Positions 11,789 to 32,765 of a stretch of DNA of 64,000 nt are shown one piece after another. The position numbers and the translations under genes are program-made. This DNA is from Escherichia coli (GTDB taxonomy: Bacteria; Pseudomonadota; Gammaproteobacteria; Enterobacterales; Enterobacteriaceae). Each line of letters begins with the position of its first letter. Positions within the stretch are counted from its first letter, which is position 1. The stretch lies in assembly GCF_029227855.1 (NCBI RefSeq), contig NZ_CP074356.1. One strand, written 5' to 3'. The notes under the pieces were generated by a model that was given only the letters and a program-made list of their open reading frames with translations, ran no database searches and had not been told where the DNA came from.

Positions 11789-11863
11789 ACGTAATTCTGC
11801 ACCCTCTCATTTATAAAATAAATCTCTGTTAAATCAAGTATCTTTTTTCTATTTGACTCATGT

Positions 11864-11873
11864 AGCCGAAGCA
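11864..11873. repeat. attR core / target-site direct repeat (AGCCGAAGCA)
   Basis: Identical to 735-744; E sequence (HEVNPQMTL...) resumes from this point. Confidence 0.85.
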
Positions 11874-13091: not shown

Positions 13092-13102
13092 CGGGAGGCG
13101 CT

Positions 13103-13456: not shown

Positions 13457-13467
13457 AAGGGGGATGT

Positions 13468-14046
13468 ATGGCCATAAAAGGTCTTGAGCAGGCCGTTGAA
13501 AACCTCAGCCGTATCAGCAAAACGGCGGTGCCTGGTGCCGCCGCAATGGCCATTAACCGCGTTGCTTCATCCGCGATATCGCAGTCGGCGTCACAGGTTG
13601 CCCGTGAGACAAAGGTACGCCGGAAACTGGTAAAGGAAAGGGCCAGGCTGAAAAGGGCCACGGTTAAAAATCCGCAGGCCAGAATCAGGGTTAACCGGGG
13701 GGATTTGCCCGTAATCAGGCTGGGTAATGCGCGGGTTGTCCTGTCCCGACGCAGGCGTCGTAAAAAGGGGCAGCGTTCATCCCTGAAAGGTGGCGGCAGC
13801 GTGCTTGTGGTGGGAAACCGTCGTATTCCCGGCGCGTTTATTCAGCAACTGAAAAATGGCCGGTGGCATGTTATGCAGCGTGTGGCCGGGAAAAACCGTT
13901 ACCCCATTGATGTGGTGAAAATCCCGATGGCGGTGCCACTGACCACGGCGTTTAAACAGAATATTGAACGGATACGGCGTGAGCGTCTTCCGAAAGAGCT
14001 GGGCTATGCGCTGCAGCATCAACTGAGAATGGTAATAAAGCGATGA
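13468..14046 (+). CDS. Z: tail terminator/completion protein Z
   Basis: 192-aa product at the lambda Z position with matching length. Confidence 0.85.
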   Translation: MAIKGLEQAVENLSRISKTAVPGAAAMAINRVASSAISQSASQVARETKVRRKLVKERARLKRATVKNPQARIRVNRGDLPVIRLGNARVVLSRRRRRKKGQRSSLKGGGSVLVVGNRRIPGAFIQQLKNGRWHVMQRVAGKNRYPIDVVKIPMAVPLTTAFKQNIERIRRERLPKELGYALQHQLRMVIKR

Positions 14047-14438
14047 AACATACTGAACTCCGTGCAGCCGTACTGGATGCACTGGAGAAGCATGACACCG
14101 GGGCGACGCTTTTTGATGGTCGCCCCGCTGTTTTTGATGAGGCGGATTTTCCGGCAATTGCCGTTTATCTCACCGGCGCTGAATACACGGGCGAAGAGCT
14201 GGACAGCGATACCTGGCAGGCGGAGCTGCATATTGAAGTTTTCCTGCCTGCTCAGGTGCCGGATTCAGAGCTGGATTCGTGGATGGAGTCCCGGATTTAT
14301 CCGGTGATGAGCGATGTCCCGGCACTGTCAGATTTGATCACCAGTATGGTGGCCAGTGGCTATGACTACCGGCGCGACGATGATGCGGGCCTGTGGAGTT
14401 CAGCCGATCTGACTTATGTCATTACCTATGAAATGTGA
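14043..14438 (+). CDS. U: tail terminator protein U
   Basis: 131-aa product [33 protein letters not shown]... matches lambda gpU. Confidence 0.9.
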
Positions 14439-14445
14439 GGACGCT

Positions 14446-15186
14446 ATGCCTGTACCAAATCCAGTAATGCCGGTGAAAGGGGCCGGGACCACACTGTGGG
14501 TTTATAAGGGGAACGGTGACCCTTATGCGAACCCGCTTTCAGACGTTGACTGGTCGCGTCTGGCTAAAGTTAAAGACCTGACGCCCGGCGAACTGACCGC
14601 TGAGTCCTATGACGACAGCTATCTCGATGATGAGGATGCGGACTGGACTGCGACCGGGCAGGGGCAGAAATCTGCCGGAGATACCAGCTTCACGCTGGCG
14701 TGGATGCCCGGAGAGCAGGGGCAGCAGGCGCTGCTGGCGTGGTTTAATGAAGGCGATACCCGTGCCTATAAAATCCGCTTCCCGAACGGCACGGTCGATG
14801 TGTTCCGTGGCTGGGTCAGCAGTATCGGTAAGGCGGTGACGGCGAAGGAAGTGATCACCCGCACGGTGAAAGTCACCAATGTGGGACGTCCGTCGATGGC
14901 AGAAGATCGCAGCATGGTAACAGCGGCAACCGGCATGACCGTGACGCCTGCCAGCACCTCGGTGGTGAAAGGGCAGAGCACCACGCTGACCGTGGCCTTC
15001 CAGCCGGAGGGCGTAACCGACAAGAGCTTTCGTGCGGTGTCTGCGGATAAAACAAAAGCCACCGTGTCGGTCAGTGGTATGACCATCACCGTGAACGGCG
15101 TTGCTGCAGGCAAGGTCAACATTCCGGTTGTATCCGGTAATGGTGAGTTTGCTGCGGTTGCAGAAATTACCGTCACCGCCAGTTAA
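14446..15186 (+). CDS. V: major tail tube protein V
   Basis: From ATG 14446 the product [22 protein letters not shown]... matches lambda gpV (246 aa) including the C-terminal Ig-like region. Confidence 0.92.
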
Positions 15187-15201
15187 TCCGGAGAGTCAGC
15201 G

Positions 15202-15624
15202 ATGTTCCTGAAAACCGAATCATTTGAACATAACGGTGTGACCGTCACGCTTTCTGAACTGTCAGCCCTGCAGCGCATTGAGCATCTCGCCCTGATGAAA
15301 CGGCAGGCAGAACAGGCGGAGTCAGACAGCAACCGGAAGTTTACTGTGGAAGACGCCATCAGAACCGGCGCGTTTCTGGTGGCGATGTCCCTTTGGCATA
15401 ACCATCCGCAGAAGACGCAGATGCCGTCCATGAATGAAGCCGTTAAACAGATTGAGCAGGAAGTGCTTACCACCTGGCCCACGGAGGCAATTTCTCATGC
15501 TGAAAACGTGGTGTACCGGCTGTCCGGTATGTCTGAGTTTGTGGTGAATAATGCCCCTGAACAGACAGAGGACGCCGGGCCCGCAGAGCCTGTTTCTGCG
15601 GGAAAGTGTTCGACGGTGAGCTGA
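15202..15624 (+). CDS. G: tail assembly chaperone G
   Basis: 140-aa product MFLKTESFEHNGVTVTLSELSALQRIEHLALMKRQ... matches lambda gpG. Confidence 0.9.
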   Translation: MFLKTESFEHNGVTVTLSELSALQRIEHLALMKRQAEQAESDSNRKFTVEDAIRTGAFLVAMSLWHNHPQKTQMPSMNEAVKQIEQEVLTTWPTEAISHAENVVYRLSGMSEFVVNNAPEQTEDAGPAEPVSAGKCSTVS

Positions 15625-16040
15625 GTTTTGCCCTGAAACTGGCGCGTGAGATGGGGCGACCCGACTGGCGTGCCATGCTTGCCGGGATGTCATCCACGGA
15701 GTATGCCGACTGGCACCGCTTTTACAGTACCCATTATTTTCATGATGTTCTGCTGGATATGCACTTTTCCGGGCTGACGTACACCGTGCTCAGCCTGTTT
15801 TTCAGCGATCCGGATATGCATCCGCTGGATTTCAGTCTGCTGAACCGGCGCGAGGCTGACGAAGAGCCTGAAGATGATGTGCTGATGCAGAAAGCGGCAG
15901 GGCTTGCCGGAGGTGTCCGCTTTGGCCCGGACGGGAATGAAGTTATCTCCGCTTCCCCGGATGTGGCGGACATGACGGAGGATGACGTAATGCTGATGAC
16001 AGTATCAGAAGGGATCGCAGGAGGAGTCCGGTATGGCTGA
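15202..16040 (+). CDS. T: tail assembly protein G-T fusion (made by -1 frameshift); T portion is 15606-16040
   Basis: ORF 15606-16040 in the -1 frame overlapping the G 3' end; product matches lambda gpT region. Confidence 0.8.
15600..15606 (+). promoter_or_regulatory. programmed -1 ribosomal frameshift slippery site GGGAAAG (G to G-T fusion)
   Basis: Heptamer G GGA AAG near the end of G, with the T frame open downstream, as in lambda. Confidence 0.85.
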
Positions 16041-18594
16041 ACCGGTAGGCGATCTGGTCGTTGATTTGAGTCTGGATGCGGCCAGATTTGACGAGCAGAT
16101 GGCCAGAGTCAGGCGTCATTTTTCCGGTACGGAAAGTGATGCGAAAAAAACAGCGGCAGTCGTTGAACAGTCGCTGAGCCGACAGGCGCTGGCTGCACAG
16201 AAAGCGGGGATTTCCGTCGGGCAGTATAAAGCCGCCATGCGTATGCTGCCTGCACAGTTCACCGACGTGGCCACGCAGCTTGCAGGGGGGCAGAATCCGT
16301 GGCTCATCCTGCTGCAACAGGGGGGGCAGGTGAAGGACTCCTTCGGCGGGATGATCCCCATGTTCAGGGGGCTTGCCGGTGCGATCACCCTGCCGATGGT
16401 GGGGGCCACCTCGCTGGCGGTGGCGACCGGTGCACTGGCGTATGCCTGGTATCAGGGCAACTCAACCCTGTCCGATTTCAACAAAACGCTGGTCCTTTCC
16501 GGCAATCAGGCGGGACTGACGGCAGATCGTATGCTGGTCCTGTCCAGAGCCGGGCAGGCGGCAGGGCTGACGTTTAACCAGACCAGCGAGTCACTCAGCG
16601 CACTGGTTAAGGCGGGGGTAAGCGGTGAGGCTCAGATTGCGTCCATCAGCCAGAGTGTGGCGCGTTTCTCCTCTGCATCCGGCGTGGAGGTGGACAAGGT
16701 CGCTGAAGCCTTCGGGAAGCTGACCACAGACTCGACGTCGGGGCTGACGGCGATGGCACGCCAGTTCCATAACGTGACGGCGGAGCAGATTGCGTATGTT
16801 GCTCAGTTGCAGCGTTCCGGCGATGAAGCCGGGGCATTGCAGGCGGCGAACGAGGCCGCAACGAAAGGGTTTGATGACCAGACCCGCCGCCTGAAAGAGA
16901 ACATGGGCACGCTGGAGACCTGGGCAGACAGGACTGCGCGGGCATTCAAATCCATGTGGGATGCGGTGCTGGATATTGGTCGTCCTGATACCGCGCAGGA
17001 GATGCTGATTAAGGCAGAGGCTGCGTTTAAGAAAGCAGACGACATCTGGAATCTGCGCAAGGATGATTATTTTGTTAACGATGAAGCGCGGGCGCGTTAC
17101 TGGGATGATCGTGAAAAGGCCCGTCTTGCGCTTGAAGCCGCCCGAAAGAAGGCTGAGCAGCAGACTCAACAGGACAAAAATGCGCAGCAGCAGAGCGATA
17201 CCGAAGCGTCACGGCTGAAATATACCGAAGAGGCGCAGAAGGCTTACGAACGGCTGCAGACGCCGCTGGAGAAATATACCGCCCGTCAGGAAGAACTGAA
17301 CAAGGCACTGAAAGACGGGAAAATCCTGCAGGCGGATTACAACACGCTGATGGCGGCGGCGAAAAAGGATTATGAAGCGACGCTGAAAAAGCCGAAACAG
17401 TCCGGCGTGAAGGTGTCTGCGGGCGATCGTCAGGAAGACAGTGCTCATGCTGCCCTGCTGACGCTTCAGGCAGAACTCCGGACGCTGGAGAAGCATGCCG
17501 GAGCAAATGAGAAAATCAGCCAGCAGCGCCGGGATTTGTGGAAGGCGGAGAGTCAGTTCGCGGTACTGGAGGAGGCGGCGCAACGTCGCCAGCTGTCTGC
17601 ACAGGAGAAATCCCTGCTGGCGCATAAAGATGAGACGCTGGAGTACAAACGCCAGCTTGCTGCACTTGGCGACAAGGTTACGTATCAGGAGCGCCTGAAC
17701 GCGCTGGCGCAGCAGGCGGATAAATTCGCACAGCAGCAACGGGCAAAACGGGCCGCCATTGATGCGAAAAGCCGGGGGCTGACTGACCGGCAGGCAGAAC
17801 GGGAAGCCACGGAACAGCGCCTGAAGGAACAGTATGGCGATAATCCGCTGGCGCTGAATAACGTCATGTCAGAGCAGAAAAAGACCTGGGCGGCTGAAGA
17901 CCAGCTTCGCGGGAACTGGATGGCAGGCCTGAAGTCCGGCTGGAGTGAGTGGGAAGAGAGCGCCACGGACAGTATGTCGCAGGTAAAAAGTGCAGCCACG
18001 CAGACCTTTGATGGTATTGCACAGAATATGGCGGCGATGCTGACCGGCAGTGAGCAGAACTGGCGCAGCTTCACCCGTTCCGTGCTGTCCATGATGACAG
18101 AAATTCTGCTTAAGCAGGCAATGGTGGGGATTGTCGGGAGTATCGGCAGCGCCATTGGCGGGGCTGTTGGTGGCGGCGCATCCGCGTCAGGCAGTACAGC
18201 CATTCAGGCCGCTGCGGCGAAATTCCATTTTGCAACCGGAGGATTTACGGGAACCGGCGGCAAATATGAGCCAGCGGGGATTGTTCACCGTGGTGAGTTT
18301 GTCTTCACGAAGGAGGCAACCAGCCGGATTGGCGTGGGGAATCTTTACCGGCTGATGCGCGGCTATGCCACTGGTGGTTATGTCGGTGGCACCGGAAGTC
18401 CGGCACAAATGCGGCGTTCAGAGGGTATCAGATTTGAGCAGAACAACAACGTGGTGATTCAGAACGACGGTACGAATGGTCTGCCAGGTCCACAGATGCT
18501 GAAGGCGGTGTATGACATGGCCCGCAAGGGTGCCCGTGATGAAATTCAGGCACAGATGCGTGATGGTGGTCTGTTCTCCGGAGGTGGACGATGA
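16033..18594 (+). CDS. H: tail tape measure protein H
   Basis: 853-aa product, same length and position as lambda gpH; coiled-coil-rich; C-terminal Gly-rich segment. Confidence 0.92.
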   Translation: MAEPVGDLVVDLSLDAARFDEQMARVRRHFSGTESDAKKTAAVVEQSLSRQALAAQKAGISVGQYKAAMRMLPAQFTDVATQLAGGQNPWLILLQQGGQVKDSFGGMIPMFRGLAGAITLPMVGATSLAVATGALAYAWYQGNSTLSDFNKTLVLSGNQAGLTADRMLVLSRAGQAAGLTFNQTSESLSALVKAGVSGEAQIASISQSVARFSSASGVEVDKVAEAFGKLTTDSTSGLTAMARQFHNVTAEQIAYVAQLQRSGDEAGALQAANEAATKGFDDQTRRLKENMGTLETWADRTARAFKSMWDAVLDIGRPDTAQEMLIKAEAAFKKADDIWNLRKDDYFVNDEARARYWDDREKARLALEAARKKAEQQTQQDKNAQQQSDTEASRLKYTEEAQKAYERLQTPLEKYTARQEELNKALKDGKILQADYNTLMAAAKKDYEATLKKPKQSGVKVSAGDRQEDSAHAALLTLQAELRTLEKHAGANEKISQQRRDLWKAESQFAVLEEAAQRRQLSAQEKSLLAHKDETLEYKRQLAALGDKVTYQERLNALAQQADKFAQQQRAKRAAIDAKSRGLTDRQAEREATEQRLKEQYGDNPLALNNVMSEQKKTWAAEDQLRGNWMAGLKSGWSEWEESATDSMSQVKSAATQTFDGIAQNMAAMLTGSEQNWRSFTRSVLSMMTEILLKQAMVGIVGSIGSAIGGAVGGGASASGSTAIQAAAAKFHFATGGFTGTGGKYEPAGIVHRGEFVFTKEATSRIGVGNLYRLMRGYATGGYVGGTGSPAQMRRSEGIRFEQNNNVVIQNDGTNGLPGPQMLKAVYDMARKGARDEIQAQMRDGGLFSGGGR

Positions 18595-18920
18595 AAACCT
18601 TCCGCTGGAAAGTGAAACCCGGTATGGATGTGGCTTCGGCCCCTTCCGTAAGAAAGGTGCGCTTTGGTGATGGCTATTCCCAGCGAGCGCCTGCCGGGCT
18701 GAACGCTGACCTGAAAACGTACAGCGTGACGCTTTCTGTTCACCGTTGGGAGGCCACGGCGCTGGAGTCGTTTCTGGCTGAGCACGGGGGCTGGAAGGCC
18801 TTTCTGTGGACGCCGCCTTATGAGTGGCGGCAGATAAAGGTGACCTGCGCAAAATGGACGTCGCGGGTCAGTATGCTGCGTGTTGAGTTCAGCGCAGAGT
18901 TTGAACAGGTGGTGAACTGA
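18591..18920 (+). CDS. M: tail tip protein M
   Basis: 109-aa product at the lambda M position with matching length. Confidence 0.88.
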   Translation: MKTFRWKVKPGMDVASAPSVRKVRFGDGYSQRAPAGLNADLKTYSVTLSVHRWEATALESFLAEHGGWKAFLWTPPYEWRQIKVTCAKWTSRVSMLRVEFSAEFEQVVN

Positions 18921-19618
18921 TGCAGGATATCCGGCAGGAAACACTGAATGAATGCACCCGTGCGGAGCAGTCGGCCAGCGTGGTGCTCTGGGAAATCGAT
19001 CTGACAGAGGTCGGTGGAGAACGTTATTTTTTCTGTAATGAGCAGAACGAAAAAGGTGAGCCGGTCACCTGGCAGGGGCGGCAGTATCTGGCGTATCCCA
19101 TTCAGGGGAGTGGTTTTGAACTGAATGGCAAAGGCACCAGTACGCGCCCCATGCTGGCAGTCTCTAACCTGTACGGCATGGTCACCGGGATGGCGGAAGA
19201 CCTGCAGAGTCTGGTCGGCGGAACGGTGGTCAGGCGTAAGGTTTACGCCCGTTTTCTGGATGCGGTGAACTTCGTCAACGGAAACAGCGATGCCGATCCG
19301 GAGCAGGAGGTGATCAGCCGCTGGCGCATCGAACAGTGCAGCGAACTGAGCGCGGTCAGTGCCTCTTTTGTACTGTCCACACCGACGGAAACGGACGGCG
19401 CTGTTTTTCCGGGGCGCATCATGCTGGCCAACACCTGCACCTGGACCTATCGCGGTGATGAGTGCGGTTATAACGGTCCGGCGGTCGCGGATGAATATGA
19501 CCAGCCGACGTCCGATATCACGAAGGATAAATGCAGCAAATGCCTGAGTGGCTGTAAGTTTCGCAATAATGTCGGCAACTTTGGCGGCTTCCTTTCCATT
19601 AACAAACTTTCGCAGTAA
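18920..19618 (+). CDS. L: tail tip protein L
   Basis: 232-aa product at the lambda L position with matching length. Confidence 0.88.
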   Translation: MQDIRQETLNECTRAEQSASVVLWEIDLTEVGGERYFFCNEQNEKGEPVTWQGRQYLAYPIQGSGFELNGKGTSTRPMLAVSNLYGMVTGMAEDLQSLVGGTVVRRKVYARFLDAVNFVNGNSDADPEQEVISRWRIEQCSELSAVSASFVLSTPTETDGAVFPGRIMLANTCTWTYRGDECGYNGPAVADEYDQPTSDITKDKCSKCLSGCKFRNNVGNFGGFLSINKLSQ

Positions 19619-19623
19619 ATCCC

Positions 19624-20367
19624 ATGACAGAGACAGAATCAGCGATTCTGGCGCACGCCCGGCGATGTGCGCCAGCGGAGTCGTGCGGCTTCGTGGTGAG
19701 AACGCCGGAAGGGGAAAGATATTTTCCCTGCGTGAATATCTCCGGTGAGCCGGAGGCGTATTTCCGGATGTCGCCGGAGGACTGGCTGCGGGCAGAGATG
19801 CAGGGTGAGATTGTGGCGCTGGTCCACAGCCACCCCGGTGGCCTGCCCTGGCTGAGTGAGGCTGACAGGCGGCTGCAGGTGCAGAGCGATTTGCCTTGGT
19901 GGCTGGTCTGCCGGGGTGAGATTCATAAATTCCGCTGTGTGCCGCATCTTACCGGGCGGCGCTTTGAGCACGGGGCGACGGACTGTTACACGCTGTTCCG
20001 GGATGCTTATCATCTGGCGGGGATTGAGATGCCGGACTTTCATCGTGAGGATGACTGGTGGTGTAACGGCCAGAATCTCTATCTGGATAATCTGGAGGCC
20101 ACAGGGCTGTATCAGGTGCCGTTGTCAGCGGCGCAGCCGGGCGATGTGCTGCTGTGCTGTTTTGGTTCATCGGTGCCGAATCATGCCGCCATTTACTGCG
20201 GCGACGGTGAGCTGTTGCACCATATTCCTGAACAACTGAGCAAACGAGAGAGGTATACCGACAAATGGCAGCGACGCACACACTCCCTCTGGCGTCACCG
20301 GGCATGGCACGCATCTGCCTTTACGGGGATTTACAACGATTTGGCCGCCGCATCGACCTTCGTGTAA
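19624..20367 (+). CDS. K: tail tip assembly protein K (Mov34/JAB plus NlpC/P60-like)
   Basis: 247-aa ORF; the classical lambda K start would correspond to the internal ATG at 19768; contains HSHP metal-binding-like motif. Confidence 0.8.
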   Translation: MTETESAILAHARRCAPAESCGFVVRTPEGERYFPCVNISGEPEAYFRMSPEDWLRAEMQGEIVALVHSHPGGLPWLSEADRRLQVQSDLPWWLVCRGEIHKFRCVPHLTGRRFEHGATDCYTLFRDAYHLAGIEMPDFHREDDWWCNGQNLYLDNLEATGLYQVPLSAAQPGDVLLCCFGSSVPNHAAIYCGDGELLHHIPEQLSKRERYTDKWQRRTHSLWRHRAWHASAFTGIYNDLAAASTFV

Positions 20368-20912
20368 AAACGGGGGCTGAAGCCATCCGGGCGTTGTCCA
20401 CACAGCTCCCGGCGTTTCGTCAGGAACTGAATGACGGCTGGTATCAGGTGCGCATTGCCGGGCGTGATGCAGGTGAAACCGAATTATCTGCCCGTCTTAA
20501 TGAGCCGCTGGCAAATGGTGCCGTGATCCACATCGTGCCGCGTCTGGCGGGAGCTAAAAGTGGCGGTGTGTTTCAGGTGGTGCTGGGGGCGGCGCTGATT
20601 GCGGTGGCATGGTGGAACCCTGTGGGCTGGCTGGGAGCCGCGGCTGTATCGGGTATGTATGCGGCAGGGGCCAGTATGATCCTGGGCGGAGTGGCGCAGA
20701 TGCTGGCACCGAAAGCCAGGACGCCCACGGCAGCAAGTACAGATAACGGCAAACAGAACACCTATTTCTCCTCACTGGATAACATGGTTGCCCAGGGCAA
20801 TGTTCTGCCCGTTCTGTACGGTGAAATGCGCGTGGGGTCGCGGGTGGTCTCTCAGGAGATCAGCACGGCAGACGAAGGGGATGGTGGTCAGGTTGTGGTG
20901 ATTGGCCGCTGA
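20265..20912 (+). CDS. I: tail tip assembly protein I
   Basis: Product MAATHTLPLASPGMARICLYGDLQRFGRRIDLRVKTG... matches lambda gpI; overlaps the K 3' end as in lambda. Confidence 0.88.
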   Translation: MAATHTLPLASPGMARICLYGDLQRFGRRIDLRVKTGAEAIRALSTQLPAFRQELNDGWYQVRIAGRDAGETELSARLNEPLANGAVIHIVPRLAGAKSGGVFQVVLGAALIAVAWWNPVGWLGAAAVSGMYAAGASMILGGVAQMLAPKARTPTAASTDNGKQNTYFSSLDNMVAQGNVLPVLYGEMRVGSRVVSQEISTADEGDGGQVVVIGR

Positions 20913-20972
20913 TGCAAAATATTTCATGTGAAACCGCCTCCGGGCGGTTTTGTCGTTTATGGAGTATGACGA

Positions 20973-23900
20973 ATGGGCAAAGGAAGCAGTAAGGGGCATA
21001 CCCCGCGCGAAGCGAAGGACAACCTGAAGTCCACGCAACTGCTGAGTGTGATTGATGCCATCAGCGAAGGGCCGATTGAAGGTCCGGTGGATGGATTAAA
21101 AAGCGTGCTGCTGAACAGTACGCCAGTGCTGGACACTGAGGGGAATACCAACATCTCCGGCGTCACGGTGGTGTTCCGGGCCGGTGAGCAGGAGCAGACA
21201 CCGCCGGAGGGATTTGAATCCTCCGGCTCCGAGACGGTGCTGGGTACGGAAGTGAAATACGACACGCCGATCACCCGGACCATCACGTCGGCAAACATTG
21301 ACCGACTGCGTTTTACCTTCGGCGTGCAGGCACTGGTGGAAACCACCTCAAAGGGGGACAGGAATCCGTCGGAAGTCCGCCTGCTGGTTCAGATACAACG
21401 TAACGGTGGCTGGGTGACGGAAAAAGACATCACCATTAAAGGCAAAACCACCTCACAGTATCTGGCCTCGGTGGTGGTGGGTAACCTGCCGCCGCGCCCG
21501 TTCAATATCCGGATGCGCAGGATGACGCCGGACAGCACCACAGACCAACTGCAGAACAAAACGCTCTGGTCGTCATACACCGAAATCATCGATGTGAAAC
21601 AGTGCTACCCGAACACGGCACTGGTTGGCGTGCAGGTGGACTCGGAGCAGTTCGGCAGCCAGCAGGTGAGCCGTAATTATCATCTTCGCGGGCGCATTCT
21701 GCAGGTGCCGTCGAACTATAACCCGCAGACGCGGCAATACAGCGGTATCTGGGACGGAACGTTAAAACCGGCATACAGCAACAACATGGCCTGGTGTCTG
21801 TGGGATATGCTGACCCATCCGCGCTACGGCATGGGGAAACGTCTTGGTGCGGCGGATGTGGATAAATGGGCGCTGTATGTCATCGGCCAGAATTGCGACC
21901 AGTCAGTGCCGGACGGCTTTGGCGGCACGGAGCCACGCATCACCTGTAATGCATACCTGGCCACACAGCGCAAGGCGTGGGATGTGCTCAGTGATTTCTG
22001 CTCGGCGATGCGCTGTATGCCGGTATGGAACGGGCAGACGCTGACGTTCGTGCAGGACCGACCGTCCGATAAGGTGTGGACCTATAACCGCAGTAATGTG
22101 GTGATGCCGGATGATGGCGCGCCGTTCCGCTACAGCTTCAGCGCCCTGAAGGACCGCCATAATGCCGTTGAGGTGAACTGGATTGACCCGGATAACGGCT
22201 GGGAGACGGCGACAGAGCTTGTGGAGGACACGCAGGCCATTGCCCGTTACGGTCGTAACGTCACGAAAATGGATGCTTTTGGCTGTACCAGCCGGGGGCA
22301 GGCACACCGCGCCGGGCTGTGGCTGATTAAAACGGAGCTGCTGGAAACGCAGACCGTGGACTTCAGCGTGGGCGCAGAAGGGCTGCGCCATGTACCGGGT
22401 GATGTTATTGAAATCTGCGATGATGACTATGCGGGGATCAGCATTGGCGGGCGCGTGCTGGCGGTGAACAGCCAGACCCGGACGCTGACGCTCGACCGTG
22501 AAATCACGCTGCCATCCTCCGGTACCACGCTGATAAGCCTGGTTGACGGAAGTGGCAATCCGGTCAGCGTGGAGGTTCAGTCCGTCACCGACGGCGTGAA
22601 GGTAAAAGTGAGCCGTGTTCCTGACGGCGTTGCCGGATACAGCGTATGGGGGCTGAAGCTGCCGACGCTGCGCCAGCGCCTGTTCCGCTGCGTGAGTATC
22701 CGTGAGAACGACGACGGCACGTATGCCATCACCGCCGTGCAGCATGTGCCGGAAAAAGAGGCCATCGTGGATAACGGGGCGCACTTTGACGGCGAACAGA
22801 GTGGCACGGTGAATGGTGTCACGCCGCCAGCGGTGCAGCACCTGACCGCAGAAGTCACTGCAGACAGCGGGGAATATCAGGTGCTGGCGCGATGGGACAC
22901 ACCGAAGGTGGTGAAGGGCGTGAGCTTCCTGCTCCGTCTGACCGTAACAGCGGACGACGGCAGTGAGCGGCTGGTCAGCACGGCCCGGACGACGGAAACA
23001 ACATACCGCTTCAGGCAGCTGGCGCTGGGGAACTACAGGCTGACAGTCCGGGCAGTAAATGCCTGGGGGCAGCAGGGAGACCCGGCGTCGGTATCGTTCC
23101 GGATTGCCGCACCGGCAGCGCCGTCACAGATTGAGCTGACTCCGGGCTATTTTCAGATAACCGCCACGCCGCATCTTGCGGTTTATGATCCGACGGTACA
23201 GTTTGAGTTCTGGTTCTCGGAAAAGCGGATTGCGGATATCAGGCAGGTTGAAACCACAGCACGCTATCTTGGCACGGCGCTGTACTGGATAGCCGCCAGT
23301 ATCAATATCAAACCGGGCCATGATTATTATTTTTACATCCGCAGTGTGAACACCGTTGGCAAATCGGCATTTGTGGAGGCTGTTGGCCAGCCGAGTGATG
23401 ATGCATCCGGCTATCTGAATTTTTTCAAAGGAGAGATAGGGAAAACCCATCTGGCTCAGGAGCTGTGGACGCAGATTGATAACGGTCAGCTTGCGCCTGA
23501 CCTGGCGGAAATCAGAACGTCCATCACGGATGTCAGTAATGAAATCACGCAGACCGTCAATAAGAAACTGGAAGACCAGAGTGCGGCAATCCAGCAGATA
23601 CAGAAGGTTCAGGTTGATACAAATAATAACCTGAACAGCATGTGGGCTGTGAAGCTGCAGCAGATGCAGGACGGACGCCTTTATATCGCGGGTATTGGTG
23701 CCGGTATTGAGAATACCCCTGACGGTATGCAGAGTCAGGTGCTGCTGGCGGCGGACAGGATTGCGATGATTAATCCTGCGAATGGCAACACAAAACCGAT
23801 GTTTGTTGGTCAGGGCGATCAGATATTCATGAACGAAGTGTTCCTGAAATATCTGACGGCTCCCACCATTACCAGCGGCGGTAATCCTCCGGCATTTTCC

Positions 23901-24452
23901 CTGACACCGGACGGGCGGCTGACGGCGAAAAATGCCGATATTAGCGGTAACGTGAATGCGAACTCCGGGACGCTCAACAACGTCACGATTAACGAGAACT
24001 GCCGGGTTCTGGGAAAACTGTCCGCGAACCAGATTGAAGGCGATCTCGTTAAAACAGTGGGCAAAGCTTTCCCCCGGGACTCCCGTGCACCGGAACGGTG
24101 GCCATCAGGGACCATTACCGTCAGGGTTTATGACGATCAGCCGTTTGACCGGCAGATTGTTATTCCGGCGGTGGCATTCAGCGGCGCTAAACATGAGAGA
24201 GAGCATACTGATATTTACTCCTCATGCCGTCTGATAGTGCGGAAAAACGGTGCTGAAATTTATAACCGTACCGCGCTGGATAATACGCTGATTTACAGTG
24301 GCGTTATTGATATGCCTGCCGGTCACGGTCACATGACGCTGGAGTTTTCGGTGTCAGCATGGCTGGTAAATGACTGGTATCCCACAGCAAGTATCAGCGA
24401 TCTGCTGGTTGTGGTGATGAAGAAAGCCACCGCAGGCATCAGTATCAGCTGA
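20973..24452 (+). CDS. J: central tail fibre / host specificity protein J
   Basis: 1159-aa product at the lambda J position with a lambda-like N-terminus. Confidence 0.92.
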
Positions 24453-24471
24453 ATTTTATAACCCATATACG

Positions 24472-24496
24472 GGCGCCAGAAATGGCGCCTTTTTTA
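24472..24496 (+). terminator. rho-independent terminator downstream of J
   Basis: GGCGCCA-GAAA-TGGCGCC hairpin followed by TTTTTTT. Confidence 0.7.
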
Positions 24497-24519
24497 TTGC
24501 AGAAAAGCGAGAGGTAATT

Positions 24520-25119
24520 ATGCGTAAAGTTTGTGCCGCCATTTTTTCCGCAGCCATTTGTCTGGCCGTATCCGGTGCGCCTGCATGGGCATCTGAACAT
24601 CAGTCCACGCTGAGCGCGGGGTATCTTCATGCCTCGACGAACGTTCCCGGCAGCGATGATCTGAACGGGATTAACGTGAAATACCGTTATGAGTTTACGG
24701 ACACACTGGGGATGGTGACGTCATTCAGCTATGCAGGAGACAAGAATCGCCAGCTTACCCGTTACAGCGATACCCGCTGGCATGAAGATTCCGTGCGTAA
24801 CCGCTGGTTCAGCGTGATGGTGGGGCCGTCTGTGCGCGTGAATGAATGGTTCAGCGCGTATGCGATGGCGGGTATGGCTTACAGCCGTGTTTCGACTTTC
24901 TCCGGAGATTATATCCGCGTAACTGACAACAAGGGGAAAACGCACGATGTGCTGACCGGAAGTGATGACGGTCGCCACAGCGACACGTCTCTGGCATGGG
25001 GGGCTGGCGTGCAGTTTAACCCGACCGAATCCGTGGCCATTGATATTGCTTATGAAGGTTCCGGCAGTGGCGACTGGCGCACTGACGGTTTCATCGTGGG
25101 TGTCGGTTATAAATTCTGA
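24520..25119 (+). CDS. lom: outer membrane protein Lom (Ail/PagC family)
   Basis: 199-aa product with signal peptide and beta-barrel pattern, at the lambda lom position. Confidence 0.85.
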
Positions 25120-25146
25120 TTAGCCAGATAACACAGTGTTATGACA

Positions 25147-25172
25147 GCCCGCCGGTTCAGGCGGGCTTTTTT
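25147..25172 (+). terminator. rho-independent terminator downstream of lom
   Basis: GCCCGCC-GGTTCA-GGCGGGC hairpin followed by TTTTTT. Confidence 0.75.
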
Positions 25173-25177
25173 GTGGA

Positions 25178-27583
25178 GTGGATATGGCAGCAGTAAAAAT
25201 CTCAGGTGTGCTGAAAGATGGTGCGGGAAAACCAATACAGAACTGCACTATTCAACTGAAGGCAAAGCGTAACAGCACCACGGTACTGGTGAACACGGTG
25301 GCCTCTGAAAATCCGGATGAAGCCGGGCGTTACAGCATGGATGTTGAGTATGGCCAGTACAGCGTCACCCTGCTGGTTGAAGGTTTTCCGCCTTCGCATG
25401 CCGGGACCATTACCGTCTATGAAGGTTCCAGACCAGGTACGCTGAATGATTTTCTCGGTGCCATGACGGAAGAGGATGTCATGCCGGAGGCATTGCGCCG
25501 TTTTGAGGAAATGGTGGAAGAAGCGGCACGCAACGCCGAAGCCGCCTCTCAGAGCGCAGCGGCGGCAAAGAAATCCGAAACGGCTGCGGCATCATCGAAG
25601 AACGCGGCGAAAACCTCAGAAACGAATGCAGCTAATAGTGCACAGGCGGCAGCGACCTCAAAGACTGCATCGGCAAACTCCGCGACAGCAGCCAAAAAAT
25701 CAGAAACCAACGCGAAAAATAGCGAGACAGCCGCAAAGACGAGCGAAACCAACGCAAAGTCCAGCCAGACGGCAGCGAAAACCAGCGAAACGAATGCCAA
25801 AGCCAGTGAAACTGCGGCAAAAAACAGCCAGGTTGCAGCAGCCCAAAGCGAGAGCGCGGCAGCCGGTTCTGCGACTTCAGCAGCTGGATCAGCAACTGCT
25901 GCGGCTAACAGCCAGAAAGCTGCGAAGACGAGTGAAACTAACGCAAAGTCCAGCCAGACGGCAGCGAAGACCAGCGAAACGAATGCCAAAGCCAGCGAAA
26001 CTGCGGCGAAAAACAGCCAGGTTGCAGCAGCCCAAAGCGAGAGCGCGGCAGCTGGTTCTGCAAGCGCGGCGGCTGCTTCTGCCACTGCATCAGCCAACAG
26101 TCAAAAAGCGGCAAAAACCAGTGAAACCAATGCAAAGACAAGCGAGACTGCAGCGGCGAACTCGGCGAAAGCATCGGCAGCAAGCCAGACAGCAGCTAAA
26201 GCAAGTGAAGACGCAGCCAGAGAGTATGCAAGTCAGGCAGCAGAGCCGTATAAATATGTCTTACAGCCACTGCCTGATGTGTGGATACCGTTTAACGATT
26301 CACTGGATATGATTACGGGCTTTTCGCCGTCATATAAAAAAATTGTTATTGGTGATGATGAAATAACGATGCCTGGCGACAAGGTTGTTAAGTTTAAACG
26401 CGCATCAACTGCCACATATATCAATAAATCAGGCGTATTTAGTGTTGCTAAAATTGATGAGCCACGATTTGAAAAAGAAGGTTTATTGATTGAAGGACAG
26501 CGCACTAACTATTTTGTTAAATCCAATACTCCCGCTGAATGGACGAGTACCAGCAATATCGATAAAACTAATAATGGTGTTGATGAATTTGGTTTTTCAT
26601 ATGCCAAAATGCGAACAAAAGATAATATGACAGGACAATCATCTGCACTTAGTCTGCATACATGCAGTGCATCCCGGGGGATTGATGTTAGTGGCGATAA
26701 TAAGTATTGCACTGTTTCATGCAGGGTTAAAGCTCCTGATGGTCTTCGTTGTCGTTTGCGTTTTGAAAAATACGATGGGTCGGTTTATACATTTTTAGGA
26801 GATGCTTATTTAACTTTCGGAACTCTGATAATAGAAAAAACTGGCGGAGCAGCCAATAGAATAGCAGCTACTGCAACTAAAGATCCGGTTACAGGGTGGA
26901 TTTTCTATGAGGCAACTATAGAAGCTGTTGAAGGTGAAGCCTTAATTGGCGCAATGATTCAGTATGCGCCGAAAAAAGGTGGTATAACTGAAGCGGGAGA
27001 TTATATTTACCTTGCAACACCACAATTTGAAAACGGCGGATGTGCTTCATCTTTTGTTATTACGACAACTGCACCCGCAACCCGCTCCAGTGATATGGTG
27101 ACGATCCCAACTGAAAATAATATCTATAATAGACCGCTTACGTGTCTTGTCGAGGTCAATAGAAATTGGGGCGATATTCCTCCTAATGTAGCACCGCGTA
27201 TTTTTGATTTTTCTGGTGTGCCACCTATTGAGTCAATTACATACGCTTTTAACACAACTGAGAAATATTACGGTCAGCTTTATATACAAACTTATAAAGC
27301 GTCGACAAGTACTTACGTTTCTAGTGTGTTTGCTGGTCGAACTGATGTTCGAAAATTCATTGGTGGTTTTAATATTTATTCTGATGGTACTAAACGAGTA
27401 GTTTCTAACGGTGAGGCTACTAAAACTATGAAAACGGAGTGGACGGGCGTAAAAACACGGACCTTTATTCGAATTGGAGGTCAAGCCACATCGGGAACTC
27501 GTCATCTATTCGGCCATTTGAGAAATCTTCGTCTCTGGCATAAAGAATTAACTGATGCGCAAATGGGGGAGAGTATTAAATGA
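25178..27583 (+). CDS. stf: side tail fibre protein (Stf-like) with a divergent AT-rich C-terminal receptor-binding region
   Basis: 801-aa product; lambda Stf-like N-terminus (MAVKISGVLKDGAGKPIQNCTIQLKAKRN...); Ala/Lys/Ser/Thr-rich repeats; C-terminal half has different composition. Confidence 0.85.
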   Translation: MDMAAVKISGVLKDGAGKPIQNCTIQLKAKRNSTTVLVNTVASENPDEAGRYSMDVEYGQYSVTLLVEGFPPSHAGTITVYEGSRPGTLNDFLGAMTEEDVMPEALRRFEEMVEEAARNAEAASQSAAAAKKSETAAASSKNAAKTSETNAANSAQAAATSKTASANSATAAKKSETNAKNSETAAKTSETNAKSSQTAAKTSETNAKASETAAKNSQVAAAQSESAAAGSATSAAGSATAAANSQKAAKTSETNAKSSQTAAKTSETNAKASETAAKNSQVAAAQSESAAAGSASAAAASATASANSQKAAKTSETNAKTSETAAANSAKASAASQTAAKASEDAAREYASQAAEPYKYVLQPLPDVWIPFNDSLDMITGFSPSYKKIVIGDDEITMPGDKVVKFKRASTATYINKSGVFSVAKIDEPRFEKEGLLIEGQRTNYFVKSNTPAEWTSTSNIDKTNNGVDEFGFSYAKMRTKDNMTGQSSALSLHTCSASRGIDVSGDNKYCTVSCRVKAPDGLRCRLRFEKYDGSVYTFLGDAYLTFGTLIIEKTGGAANRIAATATKDPVTGWIFYEATIEAVEGEALIGAMIQYAPKKGGITEAGDYIYLATPQFENGGCASSFVITTTAPATRSSDMVTIPTENNIYNRPLTCLVEVNRNWGDIPPNVAPRIFDFSGVPPIESITYAFNTTEKYYGQLYIQTYKASTSTYVSSVFAGRTDVRKFIGGFNIYSDGTKRVVSNGEATKTMKTEWTGVKTRTFIRIGGQATSGTRHLFGHLRNLRLWHKELTDAQMGESIK
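25560..26220 (+). repeat. intragenic tandem repeats within stf (about 186-bp unit duplicated at about 25735-25920 and 25921-26106, plus shorter degenerate repeats)
   Basis: Near-identical DNA blocks encoding ...KTSETNAKSSQTAAKTSETNAKASETAAKNSQVAAAQSESAAAGSA... twice. Confidence 0.8.
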
Positions 27584-27861
27584 AAGATTTAACACTCAAA
27601 TTTGCAGACAGGGCCGACTTTTCGGCCTTTATGGAGAGCATTGGCTATTATGATGACGAGTCGATGCAGGATGATATTCTTATTGACGTGATAGGTAATG
27701 TGTACAAAGAAACCGGAGAACTGACTGAAGATGGCGAACCGGTATGTGTTAAGGAAGACGGATATTTTGTAAACGTGCGCATCATTAATGATTCGCAAAT
27801 ATCGTCAATATTCGATGAATACGTGGTTGCTGTTGAGCATCAACTTCGTGGCTGGATGTGA
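27580..27861 (+). CDS. hypothetical protein (93 aa) between the two tail fibre genes
   Basis: ORF starting at the stf stop overlap (ATGA); acidic product; function not assignable. Confidence 0.45.
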   Translation: MKDLTLKFADRADFSAFMESIGYYDDESMQDDILIDVIGNVYKETGELTEDGEPVCVKEDGYFVNVRIINDSQISSIFDEYVVAVEHQLRGWM

Positions 27862-27870
27862 GGAAGAAAA

Positions 27871-28911
27871 ATGGCTACATCGACAGTAATTCCTGATGAC
27901 ATCAAAACGCTAAAATCCGACGTTAGCAAATTAAAAAACGATCAAGGAAGCTACGCAACAAAATTATATGTAGACAGCAAAGATGAAATCGTTGGTGACT
28001 GGTCTGTTTCATGGTATCAGCAGGTATTGCCAACTAGCGGAGCTATATTTGGGAGAAAACTCCGCTCAACTCACAGGACGGCAGGTGTTGAGGATGCGTA
28101 TTGCGAACTATACCTCAAAAAATGGATAGACAGTCCAGGTAACGCAATGGCGCGCCTTAACCTGAACGATAACGGGACAAACATTTGCTGGGACTTTACC
28201 AACCTTTATGGCGGTACGATGATTTTTCCCGGTGACAGCGGATACCTCAAAATGGGTAACTGCCTTATGTCATACAGCAAGCGTGGAAGTAACGCGCTTA
28301 TTAAATTTGATTACACCGACACATTACAGATCAAATATGCCAATCATGGGTCAACCATGACATTAAACACACAGGGAACCGCTTATGCTGGTGTTACTGC
28401 TCAATTGTGGGGCAACTCCAGCCGTCCTGTTGTTTATGAAGTCGGTGTTGATGGTGGCGCTTATATGTTCTATGCGCAGAAAAATACCGATAACACCTAT
28501 ATGTTAAGCGTTAATGGTGCATGTCATGCCACCGCATTTAACCAGCATTCCGACCGGGATCTGAAAGACAACATTCAGGTGATCGATAATGCAACCGACC
28601 GCATCCGTAAAATGAACGGCTATACATACACGCTTAAAGAAAACGGTATGCCCTATGCTGGTGTCATTGCACAGGAAGCTCTGGAAGCAATCCCAGAAGT
28701 TGTAGGTTCCGCAATGAAATATCAGGACGGTGCGAGCGGATCGGAAGGTGAAGAAGGTGAACGTTATTACACAGTAGATTATTCTGGTGTTACTGGCTTG
28801 CTTGTTCAGGTAGCCAGAGAGTCAGACGACAGAATAACAGCACTGGAAGAAGAAAACGCAGAATTAAGACAAAGATTATCTGCAATTGATGCGGCGCTTG
28901 CGTCTAAATAA
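27871..28911 (+). CDS. tail fibre/spike protein with C-terminal intramolecular chaperone (endosialidase-chaperone-like) domain
   Basis: 346-aa product; C-terminal region (SDRDLKDNIQVIDNATDRIRKMNGYTYTLKE...YAGVIAQEA...LEEENAELRQRL) is typical of self-cleaving tail-fibre chaperone domains. Confidence 0.7.
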   Translation: MATSTVIPDDIKTLKSDVSKLKNDQGSYATKLYVDSKDEIVGDWSVSWYQQVLPTSGAIFGRKLRSTHRTAGVEDAYCELYLKKWIDSPGNAMARLNLNDNGTNICWDFTNLYGGTMIFPGDSGYLKMGNCLMSYSKRGSNALIKFDYTDTLQIKYANHGSTMTLNTQGTAYAGVTAQLWGNSSRPVVYEVGVDGGAYMFYAQKNTDNTYMLSVNGACHATAFNQHSDRDLKDNIQVIDNATDRIRKMNGYTYTLKENGMPYAGVIAQEALEAIPEVVGSAMKYQDGASGSEGEEGERYYTVDYSGVTGLLVQVARESDDRITALEEENAELRQRLSAIDAALASK

Positions 28912-28917
28912 TATTAA

Positions 28918-28940
28918 GGGGCCGAGCGCCCCGTTTTATT
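28918..28940 (+). terminator. hairpin terminator-like element after the tail fibre gene
   Basis: GGGGC-CGAGC-GCCCC followed by GTTTTATT. Confidence 0.5.
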
Positions 28941-29247
28941 GGGTAGGATGAAAATGGATATAACACCTTTCCTTCATGCGCTTTGTGCTGTGGCTGCGCA
29001 GCTACTGATTGGTCTTTTTACCGGGAACTGGGCTTACGGGGCGATAGCCGGTTGTACGTTCTTCATTGCGCGTGAACACACCCAGGCAGAATATCGCTGG
29101 ATCGAAATGTTCGGGCATGGCAAGCGAATGAATATGCCGTGGTGGGGCGGTTTTGATCCACGCGCGTGGGATGTGGCAAGCCTGATGGATTTTGCTGTGC
29201 CGGTGGTGGCGTGTCTGCTGGTCTGGCTGTTGGTTAATCGTGGGTGA
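28939..29247 (+). CDS. hypothetical small membrane protein (102 aa)
   Basis: ORF with two hydrophobic segments; prophage accessory region. Confidence 0.45.
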
Positions 29248-29459
29248 AAAAAGGTGGGCTGTATATGCAACGGAGGAAGAAACCACGTTGCTGGAAGCCT
29301 GGAAGAAGTATCGGGTGTTGCTGAACCGTGTTAATACAACAACTGCACCGGATATTGAATGGCCAACAGTACCCATTATCGAATAGTGCATTACGAACTG
29401 CAGGATATTATATGGGATAATATTCTGCAGTTTATTGGGGCTGTATTTTAAAAAGGTGT

Positions 29460-30791
29460 TTATTTTGAGTGAATTATCACCTTGTTTTTTCCGGTTCTTT
29501 TGGCTTGATATAACGCTTTGTCGGCATTGACTAACATTTCAGATGGACTGAGATTATTCTCTTTTGAAGCAAAGCAACCAATACTGACAGTTATTTTCTC
29601 AGGTCCATGCGATAATAATTTTTCCGAGCATTGCTCTTCAATGTTTTTTCTGATTCGCTCTGCAATTGATAGCAAGAGTTTTTGAGTATTACCTTTAATG
29701 ATAATACCGAACTCCTCACCGCCTAAGCGCCCTAATATATCCTCTTTCCTGATGGATTTTTTTATTATTCTGGTAACCATTACTATGACTTGATCACCCA
29801 TATGATGCCCCCATTTGTCATTGATGCTTTTGAAACTGTCAATATCTAACATTATTACTGAGAAATCATGGTGTTTTGATATATTCTTCAATGAGTCAAT
29901 AAAGTATCTTCTATTGTATGTATTCGTTAGTGGATCATGAATTGCCATATGATTAGCATGATTTAATTTCCTGAAAACATAATACATGAGTGTTGAAATG
30001 ATATAAATCATTGATATCAATTCAAGAAATTTTGTCATGTACCATGCAGGATGGGATTTATCAATAAAATACAATAAAATTAGATTATTGCATACTGACA
30101 CTATACTAATAAGTATTATACACAACCATATTTTTGAGTAATTACGTATGCTGATGCATGAGCTGATAAGTAATACAAGCCAAAATACTGATATTATTTT
30201 GGTGTACACGATATTCCACGTCGACAAATGACGATTCAGCGAGTATTGTATAATATTAAGACTATATTTTATATGGTCACTGCTTAGATTTTTTGCTACA
30301 AACGGAGTAATAAAAAGAATTAATATTGACAAAACAACAATTATTATGTTTCTTTTATCTTCTAAAATACTTTTATTTTTAACATTGGTGGAATAAACAG
30401 CCAGAAAGATTATAGATATAAAGCTGAACTGACGGAATAGATAATATATTGCGATATCATTTGATTTCTGATAGATTGTAGATAAATCGTTACCTAACGG
30501 AGATAAAGAAATAATAGCCACTTCTAATAAATAATACGTGTTGCTCAAAAACGCGAATGAAAGAATTAAGAGATAACTTTGTCTCTGATTAGAAACATAG
30601 TAAAGCAATAGAAAAATAAAAATCATCAGGTTTATGAAAAAAAGCCCAATAATGAAAACACTATAACTTATTTGTGTTGTTTGTGTTATGTATATTCCAT
30701 TATTTTCATGCAGTAACAAAAATATAATAGAGATGCATGAAAATAAAAAGATGAAGATTTTTATTTTTATAGGTACCTGGTTGATAATCAT
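29460..30791 (-). CDS. membrane-anchored GGDEF-domain protein (putative diguanylate cyclase), prophage cargo
   Basis: 443-aa product; multi-helix hydrophobic N-terminal part and C-terminal GGDEF domain with RLGGEEF motif; strongly AT-rich. Confidence 0.75.
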   Translation of the reverse strand: MIINQVPIKIKIFIFLFSCISIIFLLLHENNGIYITQTTQISYSVFIIGLFFINLMIFIFLLLYYVSNQRQSYLLILSFAFLSNTYYLLEVAIISLSPLGNDLSTIYQKSNDIAIYYLFRQFSFISIIFLAVYSTNVKNKSILEDKRNIIIVVLSILILFITPFVAKNLSSDHIKYSLNIIQYSLNRHLSTWNIVYTKIISVFWLVLLISSCISIRNYSKIWLCIILISIVSVCNNLILLYFIDKSHPAWYMTKFLELISMIYIISTLMYYVFRKLNHANHMAIHDPLTNTYNRRYFIDSLKNISKHHDFSVIMLDIDSFKSINDKWGHHMGDQVIVMVTRIIKKSIRKEDILGRLGGEEFGIIIKGNTQKLLLSIAERIRKNIEEQCSEKLLSHGPEKITVSIGCFASKENNLSPSEMLVNADKALYQAKRTGKNKVIIHSK

Positions 30792-31040
30792 GTACGCACC
30801 TGAGAATGATATATATATAATATGTATCGCTACAAATAACGATAATTTCTTACTGGTGATAGTATACTATTATTCTGGTTAATCGCTGTCAAATTGATGA
30901 TTTTGGTTAGTATTGCAATAGCGAAGGGTTTGATCCGGTAAGACTGGCTAGGCAAGGCTATACCAAAAAATCAGTGTAGGTTCAGAAAACGATGCACCAT
31001 ACAATCATCAATAATTTCAAATTGTCCATTGTGCATAAAT

Positions 31041-31084
31041 CATAAAGAAAACCGCAGCACGTCGTATGCAAGAACGTGCTGCGG
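31041..31084 (-). terminator. orphan rho-independent terminator-like hairpin (minus strand)
   Basis: CCGCAGCACG...CGTGCTGCGG stem followed on the minus strand by TTTTCTTTAT; no minus-strand ORF upstream of it. Confidence 0.4.
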
Positions 31085-31383
31085 TTGGCTGGTGAGCTTT
31101 CGATAGTGCGAGTATTGAATGATTTCCAGACGTTACCGATTTTATATAACTGCAGTGGAATTATTCAACACACAGGCAAAACGGAATAAGCTGAGAAAAA
31201 AGCGTGCTTTCCCAATCTGGGGCAAATCACGTCTGAATGACACCTGAAAACAGGTGGTAGCCTCAAGAAGGCTTGGAATATTCTTCTTTAATGTTATGTA
31301 ATTCATTGATTTTTCTTGTACGATTTTAAGACATTTATTCCAAGAAAAATTTTTAACTCTTTGATTTTTCGACTCTGTATCAT

Positions 31384-31445
31384 CGGTCTCGAAAACCGGA
31401 GTAGGGGCAACTCTACCGGGGGTTCAAATCCCCCTCTCTCCGCCA
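31384..31445 (+). tRNA. 3' fragment of a tRNA-Ser gene (anticodon arm to CCA end; 5' part missing), likely prophage att remnant
   Basis: CGGTCTCGAAAACCGGAGTAGGGGCAACTCTACCGGGGGTTCAAATCCCCCTCTCTCCGCCA matches the 3' part of E. coli tRNA-Ser (CGA anticodon, serU-like) from memory; no matching 5' acceptor strand upstream. Confidence 0.7.
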
Positions 31446-32114
31446 CTTTATCAATGACTTATCTCCCGACTTCCCGCCTTGCTTTTCCTAAACAGAACAA
31501 TCGTAGAATATTCTTGAAGGGTTAGATCGTCACTGTTTTCTGTTCGATACTGTGACATTCAGCACTTGATTCGCTATGGATCTGACAGGAAGGTTTCGAG
31601 CGAAAATCTGCAATTATTCAGTCGTTTTCTTATCGGTCACCATTATTCTTTTAGACATTGATCCTACAAAGCTGCCGCAAAGTTGGTGGTGGGAACTGAA
31701 GTTGCGTAGAGAAGGGGGCAATAATTGAGCAAAAAAAGGAACGCGGCCGTCAGATTAAAGCCGCGGGACAAAGTCCATAATTTCCAAGAGTTGTTGAATT
31801 TCCCAGCTTTTTTGAAAGCCTTTGTATCATACTAACAAGTAAAAAAGGTTTAAATACCAAAATTAACCTATATTTCTGGTTAGCTTTACCATGACAGATG
31901 ACTTGCTCCTGGAGACATTGGCGCAGCCAGTCTGTATTGGTGAGTTGTGTATTTATTGTTCGCCGTTTTCTCAGTTTTTTTCTACAGACGTAATAAAAAA
32001 GACACGTCTCAAGCATGAGCGTGTCTGAGTTTGTCTTATTTATTTGTCTTGGTAAATTATTGTCGTTACTACCAGGCACTGTTCTGTTAAATAATTGAAG
32101 TCAGCGCAAAAAAA

Positions 32115-32765
32115 TCAATGAAACATCATCTCCTCGACCACTTCTTCGCTACTCAACTGATAGGGATAATACGTTGGCCAGTTTTCCATTTCATTTAATA
32201 AAGATTGTTGTGAATCATTACCCATAAAAATGTGAAAATGAGATGATTTTCGTGGTGCATTTATATGATCGCTAAATTGAATATATTTAGGGGCTTTGCT
32301 TTCAGGATCTTTACATTCGAATAAGTAACGAACACCTTTCTTGCCTGATTTATAGGTGAGTATTTTGTATCCATCGTAATCATATTTACAGGATGTTGTT
32401 TCATTATTTCTATGGAATTCAACAATGCCGTCCTCAATGCCAATCATCTCGATATCTGTCACATAACCTTTGCGATAATAATCTTTAATTTCAGCAAATG
32501 TTTTGGTTTTATCTGCATCCGCTTTTTTCTGAAAGACGGGGTCAAGTTTGCCACTTTGCAGTAAAGGATAAACGGATTGCCAGACTCCATCCCAGTCACT
32601 GAGCATTCGATTTTGTACATTGGCATCATCAAAAACACCATTAGCAGCTTTTTGTTCGATCTCTGTTAAAGGTTTGCCGTGTGAGTGATGACCATGCGAA
32701 AAGGCAGGAGCGCTAACAATAAAGACGCCTAAAGCAACAGCCAGTTTATGAAGACGAATCGCCAA
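32115..32765 (-). CDS. zinT: zinc/cadmium-binding periplasmic protein ZinT
   Basis: 216-aa product with signal peptide and His-rich HGHHSHG motif; matches E. coli ZinT (YodA). Confidence 0.9.

Follow-up and report, generated by a model that had tools for sequence, protein, structure and literature searches.

Islands that integrate into tRNA genes leave a characteristic pair of endpoints: the tRNA gene that is split by a tyrosine-integrase element is restored by the element's own copy, and the island is delimited by the regenerated gene at one end and the displaced fragment at the other, which is the principle exploited by Islander (PMC4383910). In Escherichia coli, the prophage loci of STEC O145:H28 include the serine tRNA gene serU (PMC7067040). 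A lambdoid prophage at this gene has been deposited as Escherichia phage SerU-LTIIb (GenBank KU052038.1), in which a 62-nt piece at the side-tail-fibre end is annotated as a pseudo tRNA-Ser (9169-9230). The same 62-nt piece is present at positions 31384-31445 of the stretch analysed here, a window of 64,000 nucleotides from the E. coli contig NZ_CP074356.1 (assembly GCF_029227855.1), and SerU-LTIIb shows approximately 95% identity to window positions 31261-31892. The two loci differ in their surroundings: in the SerU-LTIIb strain, yodB follows the fragment and genes for the LT-IIb toxin are present, whereas the window prophage has a diguanylate cyclase as cargo and lies in a yodB-less backbone. 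The orientation of the window prophage is that of phage lambda, whose tail/b-region end likewise faces attR, but the integrase family and the site (serU) are different from those of lambda.

Our comparison very probably identifies 31384-31445 as the displaced 3' part of the chromosomal serU gene, where it forms the attR junction of a lambdoid prophage that has serU as its integration site. A displaced tDNA fragment at a known prophage site is an ordinary, textbook by-product of phage integration and is already known as such; the window fits the Islander principle, as it is described in the source cited above, with no essential difference. The features on both sides of the junction are as follows.

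1..31383, + strand: right-hand approximately 31.4 kb of the probable lambdoid prophage in serU, colinear with the serU prophages of strains MLI121 (L003) and Ec-U3 (L005), satellite aside
31189..31383, + strand: probable phage-side arm of attR, non-coding and AT-rich, absent from prophage-free genomes, whose match begins at 31384
31384..31445, + strand: probable displaced 3' 62 nt of the serU tRNA-Ser(CGA), attR identity block (62/62 identity to intact serU)
31446..32114, no strand: native serU-zinT chromosomal spacer, yodB-less allele (alignment with K-12 and 2017.15.02CC)
32115..32765, - strand: zinT, the first chromosomal gene right of the junction (Pfam ZinT, E = 4e-83; annotated as zinT in the matching genomes)
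40403-40492, - strand: rseX sRNA gene, full length (Rfam)
48828-48914, + strand: DsrA sRNA gene, full length (Rfam)

The sequence of 31384-31445 on the + strand is CGGTCTCGAAAACCGGAGTAGGGGCAACTCTACCGGGGGTTCAAATCCCCCTCTCTCCGCCA. It was aligned with the serU loci of the prophage-free E. coli strain 2017.15.02CC (locus L001, 2973-3062) and of K-12 (L002, 2973-3062), in both of which a tRNA-Ser of 90 nt is annotated between mtfA and zinT/yodB. The fragment corresponds to positions 29-90 of the 90-nt serU tRNA-Ser(CGA) in all 62 bases, the terminal CCA included, and identity to the reference loci runs on past the CCA into the downstream flank. The initial annotation, which had described an approximately 62-nt 3' part of a tRNA-Ser ending in CCA and devoid of a 5' acceptor strand, was therefore accurate. 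In addition to the larger part of the anticodon stem-loop, the fragment comprises the variable and T arms, the 3' strand of the acceptor stem, and CCA; the 5' 28 nt of serU, and with them the 5' strand of the acceptor stem and the D arm, are missing, such that its first base is the second one of the anticodon stem. In the intact gene, the anticodon stem-loop reads CCGGT-CTCGAAA-ACCGG with the anticodon CGA, on the basis of which we assign the gene to serU; one GenBank record also names the gene at this site tRNA-Ser-CGA.

Searches for a complete tRNA gene, which the initial annotation had named as the result that would contradict it, yielded none: ARAGORN detected no tRNA gene in the whole 64-kb window, and Rfam at gathering thresholds detected only DsrA and rseX there. 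A permissive Rfam scan of 31200-31600 gave only partial T-arm-type matches and no tRNA call. Neither an intact serU nor the 5' half of serU was found within the window. The 3' 25-mer of the fragment occurs once in the window and in none of 100 shuffles. As the acceptor 5' strand and the D arm are missing, the fragment can form neither a full cloverleaf nor a paired acceptor stem and cannot be a functional tRNA.

The two flanks of the fragment are of different origins. The AT-rich DNA directly upstream of 31384 is unrelated to the 5' half of serU, and the base at 31383, which corresponds to tRNA position 28, is T, whereas the intact chromosomal gene has C there. The arm at 31189..31383 is 98-99.6% identical to the phages ev099, mEp332, and PhiR70_1. 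Across 5426 complete E. coli genomes, the match of those devoid of the prophage begins at window position 31384 (query position 585); thus, the edge of the identity block coincides exactly with the break in strains with an empty site (attB). The colinearity of the window with prophage-free chromosomes starts at 31384 itself and extends over at least 2.6 kb, through zinT and msrQ, to 34000 or beyond, and the gene order right of the junction (zinT, msrQ, msrP, hiuH, and hprRS) is that of annotated genomes. DsrA and rseX are ordinary chromosomal features, and their presence confirms the right half of the window as core chromosome. The occupied 200-bp junction (31285-31484) is covered to at least 80% in 880 of the 5426 complete genomes, among which the best match over the junction region is approximately 98.7-98.9%. 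The proposal that the fragment is an attR-type remnant marking the right junction of a prophage is thus supported, with phage DNA to its left and the native serU-downstream chromosome to its right, and the comparison with prophage-free strains recommended in that annotation places the start of their match exactly at the first base of the fragment. These data fix the right boundary of the prophage within the 62-bp block and the integration site as serU; for annotation purposes, the DNA left of 31384 is mobile and that right of 31445 is core chromosome.

The window begins in prophage head genes, with position 1 falling in the C-terminus of the S49 head protease, and the attL end of this genome is therefore located outside the window. 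Judging from the map of strain MLI121, the intact serU and the integrase of this genome would lie approximately 25 kb left of the window start. MLI121 (NZ_CP117016.1) and Ec-U3 (NZ_CM192149.1) share the attR junction, the diguanylate cyclase cargo, and the tail module of the window at approximately 97-99% identity, but identity falls to 80-95% in parts of the J/tail-fibre region, both strains lack the satellite found in the capsid gene of the window prophage (described below), and Ec-U3 has an IS66 nearby. At the far end of the prophage, both of these closest relatives have asnT, mtfA, an intact, regenerated tRNA-Ser, and a tyrosine integrase gene that ends approximately 27 nt after the tRNA (within ~30 nt). 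Comparison of the MLI121 attL with the window attR and the empty attB revealed a direct repeat of exactly 62 bp that diverges at once on both sides, and the attL/attR identity within MLI121 and within Ec-U3 comprises exactly the same 62 bp. The two copies are 44.4 kb apart in MLI121.

At the population level, serU is intact and joined to its mtfA-side flank in 5419 of the 5426 complete genomes (99.9%). Set against the 880 occupied junctions, this number means that genomes bearing the fragment almost always keep an intact copy as well. The seven genomes without an intact, flank-joined serU include H143, which has only the 62-nt piece. The prophage integrase is marked as frameshifted by PGAP in both MLI121 (L004, 23356-24406) and Ec-U3 (L005, 40025-41075), for which reason excision may no longer be possible. 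An integrase ORF of 341 aa with the conserved C-terminal GH...Y region remains in these two strains, and from its sequence the defect may be limited to the extreme C-terminus.

Further evidence was obtained from free phages. The complete genomes of Citrobacter phage Chris1 (ON041214.1, circular) and Klebsiella phage KpF5 (OR327748.1) contain an identical 62-bp block directly beside the integrase gene, as would be expected of attP, and their integrases are 58-59% identical to that of the MLI121 prophage. These phages have hosts different from that of the window prophage, and their phage arms cannot be aligned with the window's arm at the DNA level. At tRNA position 28, the attP of both has T, as does the window at position 31383; the T at 31383 fits the make-up expected of an attR, namely phage arm, identity block, and chromosomal flank. 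Two other candidates, vB_EcoM-606R7 and vB_EcoS-689R5, match the integrase and the whole tRNA and were rejected as attP evidence; at least vB_EcoM-606R7 is a record of a prophage region that also contains chromosomal genes (mtfA and ybtQ). In Chris1, which is an unrelated serU-type phage, a GGDEF/EAL gene (L010, 571-2130) is located across attP from the integrase gene, and c-di-GMP enzymes may be a recurrent cargo at the serU att site.

From these arrangements, the following course of integration can be proposed. The attP of the phage would hold the serU sequence from the second base of the anticodon stem (position 29) onwards, CCA included, beside the gene for a tyrosine integrase, which would recombine attP with attB inside the 62-bp block. 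Because the identity block begins in the anticodon stem, the crossover probably takes place in or near the anticodon loop. Such a position has precedent among other tRNA-targeting integrases, which fall into tRNA sublocation classes. The phage copy would complete the 5' part of serU at the integrase end, yielding an intact functional gene at attL, while the original 3' part would end up at the tail-fibre/cargo end, displaced by approximately 45-55 kb but still adjoining its native flank and zinT. The fragment would then be both a scar of integration and a substrate for excision.

Copies of the junction also occur in phages that do not use serU. The 535-bp segment 31189-31723 of the window, in which the 62 nt are preceded by the phage arm and followed by 278 bp of the host flank downstream of serU, is matched at 98-99.6% identity by ev099 (L006, 3001-3535), mEp332 (L007), and PhiR70_1. 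In ev099, the lambda att core GCTTTTTTATACTAA is present just downstream of the integrase gene, the integrase shares 23% identity with the serU-type integrase, and its N-terminus presumably represents that of a lambda Int, as which it reads. In these lambda-Int phages, the serU block is part of the b-region, and the lambda attP core and the lambda-like Int are located approximately 2 kb beyond it. We therefore rejected ev099 and mEp332 as examples of a free-phage attP: they have a lambda-like Int and a lambda att core, and their serU block is followed by host flank rather than by an integrase gene. The same block was found in a prophage remnant at the lambda attachment site, adjoining ybhB-bioA, in strain MS 124-1 (L030, 5797-5858). 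The most likely source of this fossil is an ancient imprecise excision with subsequent module exchange, and the ev099 copy has the layout expected when host DNA is taken from the attR side, as in imprecise excision of the lambda-bio type. It is very unlikely that the fossil is instead a maintained 340-bp homology cassette for recombination with serU or serU-resident prophages; if it were, it would offer lambda-Int phages a route for the exchange of tail/cargo modules or for secondary integration. The fossil block is followed by a gene for an AraC-family regulator and by transposase remnants, and the AraC segment adjoining the fossil is present in approximately 630 complete E. coli genomes. Since fossil copies occur in lambda-type phages, a serU fragment alone is no proof of a serU junction; a tRNA fragment should be accepted as an att junction only when the native chromosomal flank of the tRNA is present outside it.

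These fossils raise the alternative that 31384-31445 is itself a passenger in phage DNA and that the prophage is really integrated elsewhere, as the lambda-Int phages carrying 31189-31723 and the copy beside ybhB-bioA in MS 124-1 might suggest. However, chromosomal homology in the window does not end at +278: starting at 31384, it extends colinearly across zinT and msrQ up to 34000 or beyond, and further right the gene order is that of annotated chromosomes, with DsrA and rseX also in place. Moreover, the AraC/transposase block is absent after the fragment in the window, and the relatives with the same left-hand DNA have their attL at serU. The long colinear chromosomal flank excludes this reading for the window for practical purposes, and we consider it extremely unlikely. 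A functional or otherwise unusual truncated tRNA-like RNA has even less to recommend it: the anticodon stem-loop and CCA are indeed kept, as are the variable and T arms, but no tRNA was detected by ARAGORN or Rfam, and the 5' acceptor strand and the D arm are absent. Chance resemblance is ruled out by the identity in 62 of 62 bases together with the lack of any match in the shuffles, and the probability of either explanation is negligible.

It could also be argued that serU was cut by a deletion or rearrangement, such as one that removed the left end of the prophage together with the 5' part of serU, and that no intact copy exists in this genome. The left prophage end lies outside the window, seven of the 5426 complete genomes, including H143, have no intact serU joined to its flank, and there are signs of prophage decay, namely the satellite in the capsid gene, a nonsense codon in the satellite integrase, and the frameshifted prophage integrase of the relatives, all of which would be compatible with such an event. 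A random deletion, however, would not be expected to have its breakpoint exactly at tRNA position 29, which is the edge of both the attP block and the attL/attR identity, and the intact gene is kept in 99.9% of genomes. We therefore regard this course of events as improbable and retain the interpretation of the fragment as the attR-side remnant of integration into serU.

The chromosomal side of the junction explains a further peculiarity. The initial annotation had placed the fragment approximately 670 bp from zinT, had placed additional genes between zinT and serU in K-12, and had suspected a difference in the local backbone. The measured distance from the CCA of the fragment to the zinT stop codon is 669 bp, yodB is present between serU and zinT in K-12, and yodB is absent from the window, in agreement with all three points. 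The first ~447 bp after serU (31446-31892) are common to the window and K-12, and the following ~220 bp (~31893 to 32114) stand in place of approximately 1 kb of K-12 DNA that holds yodB. The yodB-less allele of the window is also found in the prophage-free strain 2017.15.02CC, and in ST131 and further strains, the match is likewise yodB-less and in one piece. Because the same allele occurs in prophage-free strains, the spacing is unrelated to the integration; on these alignments, the short serU-zinT distance is a common chromosomal yodB-less allele and not damage caused by the phage.

On the phage side, the head genes at the left of the window are followed by tail genes and then by cargo beside attR, and the position of J shows that the late/tail end is the one on the side of the fragment.

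20973..24452, + strand: tail tip protein J, 1159 aa (from the ORF list; annotated as gpJ in the colinear relatives)
29460..30791, - strand: MASE4-GGDEF diguanylate cyclase, 443 aa, prophage cargo beside attR (Pfam GGDEF, 3.2e-44; MASE4, 1.8e-35)

Tail-fibre genes are located between J and the diguanylate cyclase gene, and a sensor domain-containing diguanylate cyclase is annotated at the matching place in MLI121. Compared with MLI121, the region 24300-27500, which spans the end of J, lom, and the DNA up to the tail fibre, is a mosaic with 80-95% identity in pieces, and 27500-32000 is approximately 99% identical. The mosaic pattern suggests module exchange in host-range genes.

The major capsid gene of the prophage is interrupted by a satellite, the components of which are listed below.

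735..11873, + strand: helper-embedded phage-inducible chromosomal island (HE-PICI; ~11 kb) interrupting the major capsid gene of the prophage at codon ~79-82, flanked by the 10-bp repeats AGCCGAAGCA
10514-11656, - strand: TIR_2 + DUF3298 protein, 380 aa, in the right-end cargo slot of the satellite (Pfam)
11761-12303, - strand: ORF of 180 aa with no Pfam match, partly overlapping the resumed capsid frame

The flanking repeats are located at 735-744 and 11864-11873. The satellite encodes an integrase, a DUF2971 protein, a D5-type primase, an SSB, its own Phage_cap_E capsid and decoration proteins, AlpA, and the TIR_2 + DUF3298 cargo; its int, primase, and AlpA genes are on the + strand, as is the capsid gene. 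A doubled TGTATTGC motif is present at 873-892, where it starts 133 bp from the centre of the left att, and again at 11768-11787, where it ends 81 bp from the centre of the right att. For the published HE-PICI site E:Phage_cap_E:80, the corresponding distances of the motif from the att centre are 132±2 and 81±2 bp (PMC10111431). The element at 735-11873 agrees with this site in both the definition of the insertion site and the distances of the doubled motif and, by its sequence, matches the published class of helper-embedded PICIs at E:Phage_cap_E:80 (PMC10111431). The decoration and capsid genes at 9179-9915 are not those of the prophage itself, and 10514-12303 is not an IS; both belong to the inserted HE-PICI.

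At the DNA level, the satellite is approximately 99% identical to elements that occupy this site in other genomes, and its integrase was identified by Pfam domains. Related loci are at most ~99.4% identical in parts and differ in their combinations of cargo and primase. The satellite primase and the TIR protein are each present in thousands of contigs. The primase protein occurs in >2600 index blocks, and lambdoid head genes surround it in all ten places listed. The satellite integrase gene (908-2143) is interrupted by a nonsense codon at aa 154; in relatives, the protein is intact and comprises 411 aa. The composite of prophage and satellite is probably immobile, in which case the tRNA fragment at the right junction would be a permanent scar. 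In relatives of the satellite, the cargo slot at the right end is occupied by GmrSD + HEPN, AF_1680, or DUF2971 genes, and from these gene contents the slot looks like a hotspot for defence genes.
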